Below, piece after piece: positions 7,858 through 58,448 of a stretch of DNA of 64,000 nucleotides. The position numbers and the translations under genes were made by a program. Numbering within the stretch: the first letter of the stretch is position 1; each line of letters begins with the position of its first letter. This stretch comes from a virus: the IMG/VR virus record IMGVR_UViG_3300035695_000003, positions 4,406 to 68,405 of that record; one strand, given 5' to 3'. The notes below the pieces were generated by a model. That model was not told the DNA's origin, ran no database searches, and saw nothing but the letters and a program-made list of their open reading frames with translations.

Positions 7858-8340
7858 TCAGTCCTTGTAGAAGCGGAAGTATTCGCGGTCGATGTTGCCC
7901 GGGGGCACGACCTCGGTGCGCGTCGCGGCCCAGGCCGGCGCGGAGTCTTTCGGGACCATGGACGCGGGCGAATAGTACCACAGCGCGCCGAATCCCGGCG
8001 CGACAGCCAGGTATTCGCCCGACGACCAGACGTCGATGCAGCGCTGCACGTGCATCGGCTCCCAGAGCCCAGCCATCGCCTTGACCCAATAATCTTGCCG
8101 GCACACGGCGCTGAACTGGTTCTTCTGGAGCACGACCTCGACGGCCGTGCCCGGGAAGCGCGCGTCTGCCACCCGGTTCCTGATCACCTGACACACGGCC
8201 TTGATGGCCGGCACGATCATGTCCGCCGTGAACGTCCCCACGGGGGCGGGCGGGACCTCCGTCGCCGCCGTGCAGGCCACGACGTAGTCCGGCCCGTTGC
8301 AGTCGATCATGTCAAGTCTCCTCTCTTGGACGATCTTCAT
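7858..8340 (-). CDS. cell-wall hydrolase, SleB/CwlJ (Hydrolase_2) family; endolysin candidate
   Basis: MKIVQERR.. with ..VIRNRVADARFPGTAVEVVLQKNQFSAV.. (conserved QxNQFS core). The upstream 30 codons of the track ORF are the antisense of a tRNA. Confidence 0.65.
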   Translation of the reverse strand: MKIVQERRLDMIDCNGPDYVVACTAATEVPPAPVGTFTADMIVPAIKAVCQVIRNRVADARFPGTAVEVVLQKNQFSAVCRQDYWVKAMAGLWEPMHVQRCIDVWSSGEYLAVAPGFGALWYYSPASMVPKDSAPAWAATRTEVVPPGNIDREYFRFYKD

Positions 8341-8428
8341 GGCGCCGCCAGGATTCGAACCTGGGATGTTCACCACGTGGGTGGCGGTTTTACAGACCGC
8401 TGCCTTCAGCCTCTCAGACCACGTCGCC
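8340..8428 (-). tRNA. tRNA-Tyr (anticodon GUA), class II with a long variable arm
   Basis: Minus-strand sequence GGCGACG-UG-GUCU-GAGAGGCUGA-AGGC-A-GCGGU-CUGUAAA-ACCGC-CACCCACGUGGUGAACAUC-CCAGG-UUCGAAU-CCUGG-CGGCGCC-A. All four stems pair, with one A:G mismatch in the acceptor stem. Confidence 0.75.
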
Positions 8429-8445
8429 ATAGTCGTTGGTGACGG

Positions 8446-8691
8446 TCAAACAGACGGCATGTTCAGCTTGTCGTTCCCCACCGCCGTCACCCACATGCCG
8501 CCGACGAACGTCGCGAAGCCGGCGTCGAAGTTGTGCCGGATCGCCCAGTCGACGAAGATCTCGAGCGTCCCGAGCGCGGCCAGCGCGTAATGCGTGTCCA
8601 CCCAGAAGCTGGTCGCGAACCAGCCTTCGATCTTCGTCGCGACCTTCAGCGCGAGCGACGGGCGGGCGGGCACGGGCTGGATACCGCTCAT
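8446..8691 (-). CDS. hypothetical protein (lysis-cassette member?)
   Basis: 81 aa with an amphipathic/hydrophobic stretch (FATFVGGMWVTAVG). ATGA coupling to the upstream gene. Confidence 0.45.
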   Translation of the reverse strand: MSGIQPVPARPSLALKVATKIEGWFATSFWVDTHYALAALGTLEIFVDWAIRHNFDAGFATFVGGMWVTAVGNDKLNMPSV

Positions 8692-12837: not shown

Positions 12838-13262
12838 CAGCGACTGACCTTCCGCACGAGCGTCGACGTGAGCGTCGCCGTCGCGCCGGCTTTCAGCCCC
12901 CACTCAGCGAACGCCTCGAACACCGTGTTCAGCTGGATCGCGGCGCTCGACACCTCCACGGCGCGCGTTCGCGTTCCGAAGCTGAGCGTCTCTGTCTTCT
13001 CGGCCTTCACGACGGCCACGGGATCGAAGGGGCCGGGGACGAGCACGTCGACGATCTTGAGCAGGTGCCCGTCGATCTTGAGTCGGTCGCCGATCTTCGG
13101 CTCGCGCGGCGCCGGCGGCGTCTTCTTGGTCTGCTCCCATTCCCGACGACGCTGGATGTTGTCGATCTCTGACAACAGAGAATACGCGATCAGGGCGAGC
13201 TTCGCCTGCGTCTCGGCCTCGGTGATCGCCTGCCGCATCTCTTCCACGTTGATCTTCGACAT
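12837..13262 (-). CDS. hypothetical protein
   Basis: MSKINVEEMRQAITEAETQAKLALIAYS.. Confidence 0.5.
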   Translation of the reverse strand: MSKINVEEMRQAITEAETQAKLALIAYSLLSEIDNIQRRREWEQTKKTPPAPREPKIGDRLKIDGHLLKIVDVLVPGPFDPVAVVKAEKTETLSFGTRTRAVEVSSAAIQLNTVFEAFAEWGLKAGATATLTSTLVRKVSR

Positions 13263-23993: not shown

Positions 23994-24227
23994 CTACTCC
24001 TCTTTCCGCAGGAAACCGGCCGCCACGAGCGAGGCCAAGAACCTCGCCGCCGTTGCCGGGTCGATCAGCGGGGCGCCCGGCCGCTGCTCGTGGCAGCGCC
24101 GGCTCACCTCGCGCATGTAGGGCCCCTTCTGGTCCATCTCCATCCACGCGGCGCGCGTCATCTTGCGCACCACGACCCGCGCCGTCGGGCCGGCGAACGT
24201 CTTGCCGCCGCCGTCCGCGTACCGCAT
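23994..24227 (-). CDS. hypothetical small protein translationally coupled to the GATase gene
   Basis: TGATG stop/start junction at 24225-24229; MRYADGGGKTFAGPTARVVVRKMTRAAWMEMDQKGPYMREVSRRCHEQ.. Confidence 0.4.
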   Translation of the reverse strand: MRYADGGGKTFAGPTARVVVRKMTRAAWMEMDQKGPYMREVSRRCHEQRPGAPLIDPATAARFLASLVAAGFLRKEE

Positions 24228-25246
24228 CAGTCCCCCTTTCCCGTCAGTGCCCGCCGCGCCTCGTCGCGCGCGGCCTCGTGGACCCACTTCCCGTCGCGCC
24301 ACTCGTCGCCGCGGCGCCAGCTGGTGGCCGCCACCGCGCACGAGGAACAGAGCCGGACCCCGTTGATCGTGGCCATCTCGAACGGCTTCCACAGGTCGAG
24401 GCACGACCCGCACTTCTCGTACTCCTGGCCGTTCTGGCCCCAGATCTTCGTCGTGCCGAGCTGGGCGCGCCGTTTCTTGCCGCCCTTCTTCTGCGTCTTC
24501 CCGGCCCACCACCAGCTGGCCCGCGGGCTCTCGCCCGGCCGGTAGCGCACGAGCACGCCTTCGTCCAGCTCGCTGGTGCCGTTGCACGTGAGCCGGCTCA
24601 GCTCGACGGCGGCCGTCAAGATGTCCTTCGTGCTCGCGAAGGCCACCGCGTTCAGCTCGGCGACCCGCGTCCGCCACAGGGGATTCCCGCGCCGCGTCAG
24701 CCACAGCTCGGGCTCTCCGTCCGTGCCCTGTCGGCCCAGCGCCAGCGCCAGCGAGCCCTCGGCGCGCCGGAGCATCTTGCCCCAGCCGGCCGCGGGCTCG
24801 ACCGCGAGCGCCGCGATGAGGTTCGCCGAGTCGACGGCGTAGGTCGTGCCGCCCCGCGCGACGAACCGCGCGTGGTTGTTGATCACGCCGTTGTGCACGC
24901 CGACCGTCTCCGTGCCGTCCTCGTCCGCGAAGGCGAACGGGTGCGCGTTGGCGTCGGTCACCGCGCCGTGCGTGGCGAACCGCGTGTGCCCCACCAGCGC
25001 GAGCGTCGCGCCGTTCGGGACCACGAGGGCCTTCCATGCCGGATCGGCGATCAGCTCCCACGCGGGCACCGCCCGCTTGAGCACGTGCGCTGGCTCGCCC
25101 GCGTCCAGCCTGTACAGGCCGGCCGAGTCCGTCCCCCGCGCCGTCGAGAGCGCCGCCAGGCTCGCCGCGAGGCGCGCCCAGCCTGCCTTCTCGGCCTCGG
25201 TCAGCGCCGGGCCCTTCGTTCTGATGATGCCGTAGATGCCGCACAT
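24227..25246 (-). CDS. class-II (Ntn-type) glutamine amidotransferase-like protein with a C-terminal Zn-finger
   Basis: Starts MCGIYGIIRT (Cys-2 nucleophile, hallmark of GATase-II/Ntn hydrolases); ..HTRFATHG..NAHPF.. core; C-terminal CGSCLDLWKPFEMATINGVRLCSSC. Confidence 0.8.
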   Translation of the reverse strand: MCGIYGIIRTKGPALTEAEKAGWARLAASLAALSTARGTDSAGLYRLDAGEPAHVLKRAVPAWELIADPAWKALVVPNGATLALVGHTRFATHGAVTDANAHPFAFADEDGTETVGVHNGVINNHARFVARGGTTYAVDSANLIAALAVEPAAGWGKMLRRAEGSLALALGRQGTDGEPELWLTRRGNPLWRTRVAELNAVAFASTKDILTAAVELSRLTCNGTSELDEGVLVRYRPGESPRASWWWAGKTQKKGGKKRRAQLGTTKIWGQNGQEYEKCGSCLDLWKPFEMATINGVRLCSSCAVAATSWRRGDEWRDGKWVHEAARDEARRALTGKGD

Positions 25247-25721
25247 CGTCTGCCGTTCTCCTTTCAGCGGAACGCGTAATGATAACACAAACTGCTGCCG
25301 ACGACCATCCCGAGTCGGCGTCGATGCTACTATCTCTGCTGTCAGATAATCTGACAGTCGATCCGATGTTACCAATCGTCGTGTTCGGAAACGGCCTGAA
25401 CACGTGTCGCACAAGTGTTTAGCGTGTTCGCGAGTGTTCGGAACACCGTCGCTGGCCGCGTAACTTCTTATGCCGCTTTTGTTCAGGTGCTCTCGGGCAA
25501 AATCGTCATTGCTAACATCACCTCCGTTCTGGGTCCACGGAACGCCGTAACTTCTTATGCCGCTTTTGTTCCGCGTGTTCCGCGAACAGCCGGAACATTG
25601 GCATTGGCGTCGTGTTCCGCCTGTTCAGACCCTTAGGTCTGAACGGCGAACACCCATGCCCGTGTCAGAACACCTTCGATCATGGCGCCGCGAGGAGTCG
25701 AACCCCGTCGGCGCGGTCTGC
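25247..25721. promoter_or_regulatory. palindrome- and repeat-dense regulatory island (operator cluster and/or origin)
   Basis: 19-bp perfect palindrome CTGTCAGATAATCTGACAG (25339-25357). At least 5 GTGTTC...GAACAC inverted repeats (25381-25403, 25426-25446, 25576-25592, 25609-25655 nested). 26-bp direct repeat CGTAACTTCTTATGCCGCTTTTGTTC at 25459-25484 and 25546-25571. Confidence 0.5.
25681..25706 (-). other. tRNA 3'-end-like fragment (24/26 identical to the 3' end of the tRNA-Tyr gene at 8338-8363); candidate att core or tRNA remnant
   Basis: catggcgccgcGaggaGtcgaacc versus catggcgccgcCaggaTtcgaacc. The remainder does not fold into a tRNA. Confidence 0.4.
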
Positions 25722-25916
25722 CTACTTCAGGTACAGCACCCAGCCCCGCCGGGTGACCGCCATGCCGTGGTCGATGCCCTGGTCCGTCATGAAGGCAGCG
25801 ACCTCGCCCGCCGTGCTGCCGTTGGTGAACAGCGCCTTGCCCTGCTCGATCACGAAGCCTGCCAGCCTGGCGATCGTCGCCTGGCCGAGCACGCCTCCTC
25901 TCGCGATGCGCGTCAT
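25722..25916 (-). CDS. small protein encoded directly downstream of the amidoligase gene
   Basis: SD GAAAGGACG 8 nt before ATG 25916; MTRIARGGVLGQATIARLAGFVIEQGKALFTNGSTAGEVAAFMTDQGIDHGMAVTRRGWVLYLK. Confidence 0.5.
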   Translation of the reverse strand: MTRIARGGVLGQATIARLAGFVIEQGKALFTNGSTAGEVAAFMTDQGIDHGMAVTRRGWVLYLK

Positions 25917-25935
25917 CTGATCAGCTCGTCCTTTC

Positions 25936-27090
25936 TCAGGCGGCCCGCCGGAAGGCGGTCCGGTAATAGTCGGGGTTCCGGTCGAACGTCCACCGCGCCA
26001 GCGTCCGCTGGACGGCGTCGCCCATCACGATCCGCGCGAGCGACCAGCGCCGCGCTTCCGTCCACGGGGGCAGCACGCGGCGCGCCGCCTGCCGCTCCGT
26101 GCCGTCCCACGTCCGCGTCCGCTGCACGTGCAGCTCCAGCGCCCTGTCGAGCTGGTCGTCCGTGCAGCGCTGCGCGAAGTCGACCACCCGCTGCGTCGCG
26201 AGCAGCCACCAGCCTGCCTTGTTCGCGTCGAGCGTGCCCTGATGCGCCCGCATCTCGACGCGGCCGTGCCGCCACCAGTTGGTGAGGTTCAGCGCCTGGT
26301 AGCGCCCGAGCCTGCGCACGTGCGCCGGCAGATCCGTCAGCGCCGCCGAGTCTTCTGCGAACTCGCGACCCCAACGCTCGGCAAACGTGTTGCGCCGCCT
26401 GTCCGTGGGCAGCGCCTCGTGCAACGGCGTGTCGAGCGCGCCCCAGAGCCTGATCAGTCGCTGGACGAAGCCCGTCGTCCGCGCGACCCGCGCCTCGTGA
26501 TGCACGTGGAAGCCGCAGCGCCTGTCGACCCGCGCGCCCGCCGCGACCAGCGCGTTCAGCACGGCCACGACCATCGGCCAGCTCGCCGCCGTGATGGCCG
26601 GCGTCACCATCTCCCACTCGCAGCTGCCGTCGGCCTTGACGTCCCACGTTCGCCCGGTCGAATGGCGATACTCGTGATCGTCGCTGACCTGCTGTTCCGG
26701 CCACGGCGCGAGCGCTTCCCGCACCACGTCGGCCCACTCCGAGCCCGAGCGATATCGCGCGCCCGGCCCGCTCGGGTTGACGAACTCGAACTCCAGCCCG
26801 AAGCGCCGCCGCTGGTCCAGCATCGCTGGATCGAACAGCTCGCCCGGCCCGTCGGGATCGCCCGACCAGCCGATCGGATCCGGCACCGCGTCTGGCAGCG
26901 TCAGCGGGCTCGCCGGCAATTGCCGGCTTCCCCGTTGCCGCGGCCCGCGCGCCGCCTCGCTCCGGTAATACGACAGCGTGTGTCGGGGATCGGCGCAGGT
27001 CGGATGCCTGTCTCTCAGCATCCGCAGCACCGCGTCGTCCGACGCGCCGTTCGCGATGTACTCGCGAACGTCATGCGCTATCGAAGGCAC
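25936..27090 (-). CDS. amidoligase-family (GCS2/glutamine-synthetase-like COOH-NH2 ligase) protein with an N-terminal ~45-aa repeat domain
   Basis: GTG start after AAAGGGGG. N-terminal VREYIANGASDDAVLRMLRDRHPTCADPRHTLSYYRSEAARG (the repeat domain), a linker, then ..RFGLEFEFVNPSG.. (amidoligase G-x-E-x-E-F start) and ..CGFHVHHE... Confidence 0.65.
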   Translation of the reverse strand: MPSIAHDVREYIANGASDDAVLRMLRDRHPTCADPRHTLSYYRSEAARGPRQRGSRQLPASPLTLPDAVPDPIGWSGDPDGPGELFDPAMLDQRRRFGLEFEFVNPSGPGARYRSGSEWADVVREALAPWPEQQVSDDHEYRHSTGRTWDVKADGSCEWEMVTPAITAASWPMVVAVLNALVAAGARVDRRCGFHVHHEARVARTTGFVQRLIRLWGALDTPLHEALPTDRRRNTFAERWGREFAEDSAALTDLPAHVRRLGRYQALNLTNWWRHGRVEMRAHQGTLDANKAGWWLLATQRVVDFAQRCTDDQLDRALELHVQRTRTWDGTERQAARRVLPPWTEARRWSLARIVMGDAVQRTLARWTFDRNPDYYRTAFRRAA

Positions 27091-28080: not shown

Positions 28081-28404
28081 TCACGCCGCCGCGGCGCGCC
28101 GCGCTTCGCGCTGGTAGAACCGCAGCGTCCGGCGCGGGTTGACGCAGGTCGGATACTTCTCCATCACCATCTGCAGAATCGCCCGCTCGTCCGTCCCCGC
28201 CGCCAGCGCCGCCCTGACGTCTGCCGCGATTCCGCCGCGGGGCTTGACGTCAAGCGAAAACGCCGTCCGCGCTTCGCTCTTGTAGTACGCCAGGGTCCGC
28301 GCCGCATTCGCCGTCGCGGGAAAATCGCTGTGAATCATCGCCAGGATCTGCTCGTCGGACTGGCCAGCGGCCAGGGCACTGCGCACGGCCTGCGCGGTAG
28401 TCAT
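28081..28404 (-). CDS. protein made of two tandem copies of the ~45-aa repeat domain that also heads the amidoligase
   Basis: Repeat 1 VRSALAAGQSDEQILAMIHSDFPATANAARTLAYYKSEAR; repeat 2 VRAALAAGTDERAILQMVMEKYPTCVNPRRTLRFYQREAR; SD AAAGGGA before ATG 28404. Confidence 0.6.
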   Translation of the reverse strand: MTTAQAVRSALAAGQSDEQILAMIHSDFPATANAARTLAYYKSEARTAFSLDVKPRGGIAADVRAALAAGTDERAILQMVMEKYPTCVNPRRTLRFYQREARRAAAA

Positions 28405-28956
28405 TTTGACTCGTCCCTTTCTTGCGACACTCGCGTCAGCGCTACAGTGCAGCGTCCGCGCGATGTCAATCTTTCATACGGGGTAGCGCCCCGCGCGCCG
28501 CGAACCATCCTTCCGCCCGCGTGACCTAAAGCTACTAGCTTTATGGCGTAAAGCTAGTAACAATCGTGTAACGGAAAACCGTATATTTATAAGTCCCTCC
28601 GCCCCATGCCCGAGCACGAAAAATGTATAACTATACAGCCCGGTGAATAATTATTCATTTCATCGCGTCCGCGCGACATGCGCAGCGTGCGCGCTGCAAG
28701 ATAATGGCTCAAAGGCTGAAGGACGAAGGTCCGTCGCGCCGGCGCTGCAATTTCGGGGCGGGGGGTGCTGGAAAATCGGGCGGGGGCACTAGTCCGGCGA
28801 ATCGCATCCGGAATCGAGACTGATCCAGACCATGCGCGGACAACGGCTTGCAGCCCGTGGTCCCAGAACCTGGAAGCATGATTCGCGACGGTTCGCACGT
28901 GCGCCCACGATGCGCGCACTGGCGCGCACGACCCTCTCGACCTAGGTTCGCGACAC
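28405..28956. promoter_or_regulatory. AT-richer divergent control region between the leftward early and rightward late modules
   Basis: TTGACA at ~28448 (minus strand). GTAAC iterons AGTAACAATCGTGTAACGG (28555-28573). 15-bp palindrome AAAGCTACTAGCTTT (28526-28540). 12-bp perfect palindrome GAATAATTATTC (28644-28655). Bipartite motif at 28916-28951 (see findings). Confidence 0.5.
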
Positions 28957-58398: not shown

Positions 58399-58411
58399 TC
58401 TGATCCGGCTA

Positions 58412-58448
58412 ACAAAAAGGCCCCTCGATCGAGGGGCCTTTTGCTTTA
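58412..58448. terminator. bidirectional rho-independent terminator between the convergent late (+) and early (-) units
   Basis: AAGGCCCCTCGA/TCGAGGGGCCTT 12-bp perfect inverted repeat, followed by TTTTGCTTT on the plus strand and TTTTTGTT on the minus strand. Confidence 0.6.

Follow-up and report, generated by a model that had tools for sequence, protein, structure and literature searches.

The element lying between an amidoligase gene and a class-II glutamine amidotransferase (GATase) gene of this phage is derived from a tRNA sequence, of which it retains roughly 25-35 bases comprising the T arm and the 3' acceptor strand. The reading that we favour, with moderate confidence, is that it represents a truncated second phage tRNA gene, which now forms a 3' stem-loop on a leftward transcript and is not a recombination site. 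The preliminary description of the 64,000-nucleotide stretch analysed here (the window) had put the segment forward as a candidate attP core and, alternatively, as a decayed tRNA duplication. The coordinates of the features discussed below are collected in Table 1.

The relationship to tRNA is evident from a comparison with the end of the phage tRNA-Tyr gene, which ARAGORN places at 8339-8429 on the minus strand. The 24-mer CATGGCGCCGCCAGGATTCGAACC, which is the plus-strand reading of positions 8338-8361, is encountered again at 25681-25704 with two mismatches. A second match to this 24-mer was present in none of 100 dinucleotide shuffles, even when up to three mismatches were allowed, and a blastn search with positions 25200-26000 as query against the whole window returned a single notable match, between 25680-25704 and 8337-8361 (23/25 identical, E=0.003). 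The similarity noticed in the preliminary description is thus real, with the proviso that its count of 24 out of 26 should read 22 out of 24 for the string then quoted, or 22 out of 26 when 25681-25706 is compared with 8338-8363; likewise, the identity that was said to run 2 nt beyond the tRNA end extends for 3 nt (UGA) if the Rfam end at 8340 is adopted. The sequence GGTTCGANTCC occurs exactly in the tRNA gene and in the fragment and nowhere else in the window. Chance resemblance without tRNA ancestry could be considered for an element that is short and located in G+C-rich sequence, but it is already refuted by the shuffles, and a canonical T arm followed by an identical 8-nt acceptor/discriminator segment and three identical trailer bases also speaks against it, as does the restriction of GGTTCGANTCC to these two sites. 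We regard such a coincidence as exceedingly improbable.

The fragment is not a functional tRNA gene. In agreement with the earlier statement that no complete tRNA can be folded here, ARAGORN reported no tRNA around the fragment at its default and -ps settings, the Rfam tRNA model gave nothing at E<=10 and nothing at its gathering score, and the sequence 5' of the T arm has no significant similarity to tRNA-Tyr; a complete cloverleaf with an anticodon arm is not recognised by tRNA models. A "tRNA-Phe" obtained with ARAGORN at a 70% threshold is an artefact, being a poor prediction with mismatched stems. A full-length decayed tRNA was considered when affine local alignment hinted at similarity in the 5' flank, and was rejected because this similarity to tRNA-Tyr is not significant when judged against random segments of the same strand (local p ~0.62, global p 0.39-0.80). 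A segmental duplication that included a neighbouring gene was also rejected, as no similarity was seen by eye between gene 51, the orphan gene beside the fragment, and the gene upstream of tRNA-Tyr (8446-8691). Significant identity is therefore partial, and the canonical tRNA features are confined to the identical part, as expected of a truncated tRNA gene (tDNA).

Table 1. Positions of the tRNA-derived element, its components and the surrounding features (window coordinates; components of the hairpin are given in the order in which they are read on the minus strand).
Feature	Positions	Strand	Details
tRNA-Tyr (GUA), the sole intact tRNA gene of the phage	8340-8428	minus	Rfam RF00005, 43.2 bits
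GATase gene, downstream neighbour	24227-25246	minus	PHROG and Pfam GATase_6
Insertion (gene 51, tRNA fragment and island), 689 bp	25247-25935	minus	between amidoligase and GATase
Non-coding repeat/palindrome island, 433 bp	25247-25679		GC ~53% versus ~69% for the genome
tRNA-derived hairpin ("minihelix")	25680-25714	minus	23/25 match to tRNA-Tyr 3' end; MFE fold
Hairpin 5' strand, GCGCCG	25714-25709	minus	pairs with the 3' acceptor strand
Bulged A	25708	minus	
T stem, CGGGG	25707-25703	minus	
T loop, UUCGACU	25702-25696	minus	
T stem, CCUCG	25695-25691	minus	
3' acceptor strand, CGGCGCC	25690-25684	minus	
Discriminator A (A73)	25683	minus	
Trailer, UGA	25682-25680	minus	
Orphan 64-aa gene (gene 51)	25722-25916	minus	GC3 0.96 in frame; called in public contig
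GGUGCUG, alternative acceptor partner in the Rfam mascRNA-menRNA alignment	25734-25740	minus	within the CDS of the 64-aa gene
Amidoligase gene, upstream neighbour	25936-27090	minus	Pfam PF12224, E=9e-18

The GCGCCG sequence located immediately 5' of the T arm is complementary to the acceptor strand, and the remnant consequently has the shape of a tRNA minihelix, in which an acceptor stem is stacked on the T arm and the D, anticodon and variable regions are absent. The structure GCGCCG-A-CGGGG-UUCGACU-CCUCG-CGGCGC was the minimum free energy (MFE) fold in all contexts that were folded, with energies from -19.4 to -20.5 kcal/mol. Its stem comprises 11 bp, contributed by a 6-bp acceptor-like stem and a 5-bp T stem, and is interrupted by one bulged A, with the T loop at its tip. 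The base at 25715, which would be the first of the 5' acceptor strand, is C rather than G. On the 3' side, the 7-nt acceptor strand, the discriminator A and the three trailer bases are the same as those of tRNA-Tyr. The T arm is canonical: it retains G53, T54, T55, C56, A58 and C61 as well as five pairs, including one G-U.

All four differences from tRNA-Tyr fall within the T arm. Pair 50:64 has changed from C-G to G-C, which is compensatory, pair 51:63 from A-U to G-U, which preserves a wobble pair, and the remaining change is at the variable loop position 59. In a random-substitution test, which was devised post hoc, four substitutions preserved both the pairing and the universal bases in 0.7% of trials when restricted to the T arm and in 0.12% overall. 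Since pairing and universal bases have been kept, the T arm points to descent from a different, once-functional tRNA or to a selected hairpin, and not to neutral decay of a tRNA-Tyr copy; the pattern of substitution is accounted for equally well by descent from another tRNA and by present selection on the hairpin in a different role. The earlier suggestion of a decayed tRNA duplication accordingly lies closer to the evidence than the attP proposal as far as a tRNA remnant is concerned, but a copy of tRNA-Tyr is not supported, homology to that gene being undemonstrable outside 25-28 nt.

A more elaborate tRNA-like fold was also considered. The Rfam mascRNA-menRNA family (RF01684) matches positions 25684-25740 with 28.5 bits (E=0.0023 in a 1.2-kb search), which is below its gathering score of 42.5, and the match is missing from a gathering-threshold scan of the whole window. 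The GGUGCUG partner that this alignment employs probably arises by chance, as 16% of 45-nt stretches are expected to include a GGYGYYG partner at random. The tRNA-like fold has an energy of -17.9 kcal/mol, compared with -28.2 kcal/mol for the MFE structure, and an ensemble probability of 2.5e-8. A mascRNA-like cloverleaf was rejected as the main fold on the grounds of its sub-threshold score, its position 10 kcal/mol above the MFE and the 16% chance frequency of its 5' strand.

Loss of the middle of the gene is the simplest history for the fragment, since it would account for the retention of a canonical T arm and of both acceptor strands, for the missing D and anticodon regions and for the abrupt end of tRNA similarity at the boundary of the T stem: a single internal deletion, removing approximately positions 8-48 of the tRNA gene, would yield the minihelix directly. 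The 5' two-thirds of the gene may equally have been lost when it was joined to the orphan gene, in which case the hairpin would have been kept or extended by selection afterwards. As no relative carrying the element was found, either history must be regarded as conjectural.

The genome in which the element resides could be completed. Proteins of the window are present with exact identity on a Logan contig of 68,308 bp and on a JGI contig of 68,405 bp. In the Logan contig a stretch of 4,278 bases connects the end of the window to its start, with exactly identical flanks, and the two assemblies close the genome as a circle of 68,278 bp. The Logan and JGI contigs exceed this unique sequence by 30 and 127 bases respectively, which we infer to be the k-mer overlaps of circular assemblies. 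The genome does extend beyond the window, as had been anticipated, though by 4,278 bp only. According to a gene map based on GC3 frame analysis, the minus strand carries genes 1-56 as far as position 28404, after which come a divergent control region (28405-28956), structural genes on the plus strand to 58398 and then replication genes on the minus strand.

The previous observation that the window contains no integrase holds for its 98 genes when compared with Pfam and for the proteins that were scanned against PHROGs. At E<=1e-3 the 98 genes matched 27 Pfam families, with no Phage_integrase, Resolvase, Recombinase or transposase domain among them, and comparison of 20 larger proteins with PHROGs revealed no integrase, adding instead an exonuclease, a peptide deformylase, a dATP/dGTP pyrophosphohydrolase and a Lar-like protein. 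The preliminary description recommended that an integrase be looked for in the rest of the genome, and none is encoded in the additional 4,278 bp: its nine larger genes gave no integrase or recombinase with Pfam at E<=0.1 or among precomputed matches. This 4.3-kb remainder encodes the rest of a C5 methylase, a PRA-PH/MazG-like protein, a P-loop kinase-like protein, a thymidylate-synthase homologue and small proteins. Other genes of the phage specify DNA polymerase A, SNF2 and AAA_25 helicases and enzymes of nucleotide and DNA modification, and the gene content looks to be of the lytic-phage type.

These results bear directly on the possibility that the fragment is an attP core, active or relic, which would act as the common core for integration of the phage, of an ancestor or of a cassette gained in the past into a host tRNA gene. 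In its detailed form this reading would place the crossover in the T loop and would interpret the TGTTC repeats of the adjoining island as arm-type sites and gene 51 as an excisionase-like protein. The extent of the fragment, which covers the T arm, the acceptor strand and a few bases beyond the tRNA, does resemble that of a T-loop-type att core, for which the classes of att-site sublocation in tRNA genes reportedly described by Williams in NAR in 2002 are the source. In addition, the inverted repeat, with 11 bp on either side of a 7-nt spacer, recalls the core site of a tyrosine recombinase, the flank is relatively A+T-rich and rich in repeats, gene 51 is small and gives a weak winged-helix-like prediction, and tRNA-Met genes with the same 3' acceptor strand serve as att sites in Conexibacter-like genomes. 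The principle behind T-loop-type att cores in tRNA genes has been documented (PMC4383910).

An attP site requires a site-specific (tyrosine) integrase that is encoded by the element and normally adjacent to it, whereas the neighbours of the fragment are the amidoligase, the orphan 64-aa gene and the GATase, and the scans of the closed genome revealed no tyrosine or serine recombinase or transposase. Lytic functions (DNA polymerase A, helicases, exonuclease, a thymidylate-synthase-like protein, nucleotide- and DNA-modification genes) argue in the same direction. Integrated copies flanked by attL/attR would be expected of such a site; exact matches to the proteins were found only on a free contig of ~68.3-68.4 kb that assembles as a circle, and among these matches no integrated copy was seen. 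Arm-type repeats are expected on both sides of a core, but the repeats here are confined to one side. The fold matches of gene 51, on which an excisionase-like interpretation would draw, are not significant (E>=1).

The search for a host tRNA led to a similar conclusion. The 20-mer TTCGACTCCTCGCGGCGCCA, which spans the T loop and the remainder of the 3' end, was not found exactly in any of 185,579 species genomes (one genome per species), a set from which the true host may be absent. A host tRNA gene (attB) whose 3' part coincides with the core, so that the tRNA would be restored on integration, as the preliminary description had envisaged for a host match, is thus not found among these genomes. 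With the acceptor strand kept constant, a degenerate pattern (GGTTCGANTCCNNGCGGCGCCA) identified 37 loci, the majority being tRNA-Met(CAT) genes from Conexibacter, Solirubrobacterales and other Actinomycetota MAGs. In these nearest tRNAs, from Conexibacter-like Actinomycetota, the T stem and T loop differ from those of the fragment and nothing is shared upstream. Several of the tRNA-Met loci are accompanied by one or two extra copies of the last ~48 nt of the tRNA, which we take as the mark of elements that have integrated at tRNA-Met. The att cores in these Conexibacter-like genomes start in the anticodon loop, and when compared with the fragment they match at only 21/25 positions in the T arm and acceptor strand, which is no better than tRNA-Tyr, and at 4/17 positions upstream.

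To the extent that the attP proposal can be tested, neither an integrase nor a matching host tRNA was found, and an active attP site is largely refuted. In view of the extent of the fragment and its 11-bp/7-nt/11-bp geometry we retain a small chance for an active or relic att site, including the version with arm-type repeats and an excisionase, and consider it quite unlikely as a whole. Two related candidates were considered. The first, an Islander-type island bounded by the fragment and tRNA-Tyr, was discarded because the 17.3-kb interval has the wrong polarity, the 50.9-kb interval contains structural and replication genes, and there is no integrase. The second, a Xer/dif-like site for host recombinases, has a similar geometry, but the element does not appear to resemble the dif consensus, which is A+T-rich.

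The context of the fragment was examined in related contigs (L004, L005, L006, L046, L047, L048 and JGI 3300045391). In 7/7 of these the amidoligase and GATase genes overlap, abut or sit 83 nt apart, and the same gene of 77-79 aa comes after the amidoligase-GATase pair; orthology and synteny were checked at 42%, 48% and 49% identity. The adjacency of the two genes in all seven relatives identifies the 689 bp that separate them in this phage as a lineage-specific insertion, which splits an otherwise contiguous amidoligase-GATase operon and has the tRNA fragment at an edge. The GATase protein begins with MCGIYG. Searches for relatives that possess the element itself gave nothing in phage, viral or metagenome DNA collections: the region had no match among 50,697 phage records by megablast or blastn, tblastn of the putative portal against phages and an amidoligase search of IMG/VR were empty, and neither the fragment nor the 26-nt repeat of the island was recovered when IMG/VR was scanned for exact patterns. 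A degenerate pattern recovered only two unrelated phage tRNA-like sites in IMG/VR, and a metagenome scan for the fragment gave only two chance matches in unrelated coding sequence.

Gene 51, which constitutes the coding part of the insertion, found only itself among 5.8 billion proteins and matches no Pfam or PHROG family. A single-sequence AF2 model (pLDDT 72) has two helices and a beta hairpin; when this was compared with the PDB using Foldseek nothing significant was obtained (E>=1), although several of the weak top matches are winged-helix proteins. The remainder of the insertion is the non-coding island, which contains 14 TGTTC/GAACA pentamers (48 per kb compared with 2.3 per kb elsewhere, a 20-fold enrichment), nine GTGTTC hexamers, two perfect 26-nt direct repeats and two perfect palindromes with 9-bp arms. 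All 14 pentamers are located at 25382-25672 on one side of the fragment, the other side being coding sequence from which they are absent.

The fragment was correctly described as lying next to this palindrome island, since the closest GTGTTC copy (25668-25673) is 7 nt away. Such proximity raises the possibility that the fragment is a DNA-level component of the island, as part of an iteron origin or of an operator array, for which gene 51 might be the regulator, and that its tRNA ancestry is incidental. Besides directly adjoining an island with so strong an enrichment in repeats and palindromes, the fragment contains a T loop region, GGGGTTCG, that is one base off the island consensus (C/G)GTGTTC(C/G). 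As the island motif is only a 5-6-mer, a match with one mismatch carries little weight. The hairpin arms (GCGCCG.CGGGG) are unlike every repeat of the island, this is the only element there to match tRNA, and none of the neighbouring genes is assigned a replication-initiator or regulator function. We therefore view a DNA-level role as unlikely.

A role of the tRNA remnant at the level of RNA is suggested by its position and strand. The hairpin is situated within a block of genes that lie uniformly on the minus strand, and on the coding strand 7 nt separate the UAG stop codon of gene 51 (25724-25722) from its first base. Given this location just past a stop codon on the coding strand, the message of the amidoligase and gene 51 should carry the element at its 3' end. 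The end of this transcript would then fold into the 11-bp G+C-rich stem-loop, at approximately -20 kcal/mol, which may define the 3' boundary of the upstream transcription unit and shield it. Protection could be achieved by blocking 3'->5' exonucleases, by presenting a tRNA-like substrate to RNase P or RNase Z, or by both; the hairpin is a candidate substrate of RNase P or RNase Z by its shape, namely a 6-bp acceptor-like stem, a bulged A, a 5-bp T stem and a canonical T loop. The island behind the hairpin could supply regulatory sites or a promoter for the GATase and downstream genes. A candidate extended -10 element, TGTTATCAT, is present at 25287-25279 on the minus strand, 32 nt before the GATase start, as a consensus match only, and a two-hexamer scan for promoters found none. 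The role that we favour for the hairpin is that of a 3' boundary element of this transcription unit, though the hairpin may also be inert.

Termination of the conventional kind does not appear to be involved. The hairpin stem (-19.4 kcal/mol) is followed by the tail CAUGAUCGAA, in which there is no U tract, and a consensus terminator scan reported none at the hairpin. Terminators with a U tract are found elsewhere in the phage (58405-58445, after 1336 and after 37809). Given that the clear terminators of this phage possess a U tract and the hairpin does not, it is not a standard intrinsic terminator, which consists of a G+C-rich stem-loop and a subsequent run of U.

A further possibility is that the minihelix is a functional tRNA mimic, which would be released from the transcript as a small RNA by tRNA-processing enzymes. 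It would then serve, for instance, as a decoy or competing substrate of host enzymes or defence nucleases whose target is the acceptor/T-arm half of tRNA. Acceptor/T-arm minihelices are substrates of RNase P and of the CCA-adding enzyme. The retention of the universal T-arm nucleotides and of all stem pairs in spite of four differences would be in accordance with such a function, but recent descent from a working tRNA accounts for it just as well. Also compatible are the complementary 5' strand that completes the acceptor-like stem, the chance of which is estimated from composition at ~1-2%, and the weak Rfam match to the tRNA-like mascRNA family; the score of this match, however, is well under the gathering score, and the cloverleaf-like fold is thermodynamically disfavoured. 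No relative with the element was found, and we consider a mimic very unlikely. Similarly improbable is a speculative extension in which a lytic phage keeps a minimised tRNA on the 3' end of an mRNA, either to be released as a decoy or to punctuate a polycistronic transcript in the manner of mitochondrial tRNAs.

The main value of this analysis is a correction. Lysogeny cannot be deduced from the mere finding that a phage carries a tRNA 3' fragment, and it would be wrong to label this phage temperate or to predict its host by means of an "attP". As by-products, the genome is seen to be complete at 68,278 bp and apparently lytic, and the fragment is recognised as the edge of a recent 689-bp insertion that has brought an orphan gene and a dense repeat array into a conserved operon. 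A demonstration that the hairpin is processed as a tRNA mimic would add a small case of a tRNA remnant put to new use as an RNA boundary element.

The element invites comparison with several known systems. Like an intrinsic (Rho-independent) terminator, it is a G+C-rich stem-loop a few bases past a stop codon, from which it differs in having no U tract. mascRNA, at the 3' end of MALAT1 (RF01684), and other embedded tRNA-like substrates are similar in placing a mimic of the acceptor stem and T arm at the 3' end of a transcript; in contrast to mascRNA, the score here (28.5) is below the gathering score (42.5), and a simple hairpin is preferred to cloverleaf-like pairing. Phage-encoded substrates of RNase P include the precursor of the C4 RNA of P1 and P7 and the M3 RNA of phi80. 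The attP cores of phages and islands that integrate into tRNA genes, such as mycobacteriophage L5 (tRNA-Gly), P4 (tRNA-Leu) and P22 (tRNA-Thr), and the tRNA-Met repeats of Conexibacter, share with the fragment a tRNA 3' segment that runs just past the end of the tRNA and a relatively A+T-rich, repeat-rich flank. They are distinguished from it by the combination seen here of no integrase, no identical host tRNA, one-sided repeats and genes of lytic type.

The closest parallel is with the tRNA gene fragments of prokaryotes and phages. Known fragments usually stem from site-specific integration and mark the end of an island beside an integrase gene. The present element resembles them in consisting of a 3' portion without the rest of the cloverleaf, and in that an intact tRNA gene which shares its acceptor strand is located on the same replicon in the same orientation. 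It differs in that there is no integrase and a complementary 5' strand makes it a hairpin. The polarity is also wrong for an island, the fragment being upstream of the intact gene in the 17-kb interval, while the other interval between the fragment and tRNA-Tyr contains essential genes of the phage. Partial tRNA genes (tDNAs) nevertheless form a recognised class (PMC9897764, PMC4383910), of which this truncated tRNA gene is a new example.

Together with the 4,278 bases outside the window, read at positions 5133-9410 of L003 (a stretch of Logan contig SRR11729748_17627), the window forms a closed circle of 68,278 bp, the corresponding JGI contig being 68,405 bp long. At the DNA level the phage matches none of 50,697 GenBank phages, and its putative portal likewise finds no protein-level match among them. 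The gene set suggests that the phage DNA is modified; among its members are an amidoligase, a GATase, a GGACT-like protein, a thymidylate-synthase homologue, several nucleoside 2-deoxyribosyltransferases and a dATP/dGTP diphosphohydrolase. The phage also encodes a PRA-PH/MazG-like protein and two methyltransferases, one of them a C5 cytosine methylase.

The amidoligase and GATase genes and a gene for a 77-aa protein form a contiguous triplet that is conserved in distantly related contigs (L004, L005, L006, L046, L047 and L048), some of which encode a T7-like RNA polymerase. In contrast to these relatives, only this phage has 689 bp inserted between the amidoligase and GATase genes (25247-25935), and this insertion includes an orphan gene. 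The dense repeat island within this insertion has a GC content of ~53%, compared with ~69% for the genome, and contains 14 TGTTC/GAACA pentamers within ~290 bp, a 20-fold enrichment, as well as nine GTGTTC hexamers. It looks like a candidate operator or iteron array. A lone GAACAC-n-GTGTTC palindrome with the same motif is present at 12918-12930, close to a boundary of minus-strand genes at ~12.8-12.9 kb, and may represent a further putative site for a protein that binds the island.

The region separating the leftward from the rightward gene block is A+T-rich in places and includes palindromes, among them TAAAGCTACTAGCTTTA and GAATAATTATTC; it probably constitutes the early promoter/operator region. 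A terminator of textbook form separates the DNA polymerase operon from the tail-end gene that converges on it, and shows that U-tract terminators are in use in the host.

Sequence features of the phage and tRNA-Met(CAT) repeat loci in Actinomycetota
Feature	Location	Description
Repeat island	25247-25679	TGTTC/GAACA pentamers, GTGTTC hexamers, direct repeat, palindromes
Perfect palindrome in island	25339-25357	CTGTCAGAT-a-ATCTGACAG
Perfect direct repeat in island	25459-25484 / 25546-25571	26 nt
Perfect palindrome in island	25623-25644	GTTCAGACC-ctta-GGTCTGAAC
Divergent control region	28405-28956	Between leftward and rightward gene blocks
Bidirectional intrinsic terminator	58405-58445	AAAAAGGCCCCTCGATCGAGGGGCCTTTTTG
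tRNA-Met(CAT) repeat loci	L015 (2328, 4735, 6064); L018 (2588, 1491); L025 (6593, 2266)	
Further tRNA-Met(CAT) repeat loci	L016, L023, L027, L029	

At the tabulated loci, which belong to MAGs of Conexibacter, Solirubrobacterales and other Actinomycetota, a tRNA-Met(CAT) gene has one or two extra copies of its last ~48 nt behind it, extending from the anticodon loop to 4 nt beyond the tRNA end. Such 3'-end copies are the hallmark left when elements, single or in tandem, integrate at that tRNA. The phage tRNA-Tyr gene (8340-8428) does not encode CCA, and its acceptor stem (GGCGACG / CGGCGCC) contains an A5.G68 mismatch; the Conexibacter-type tRNA-Met has exactly the same 3' acceptor strand.
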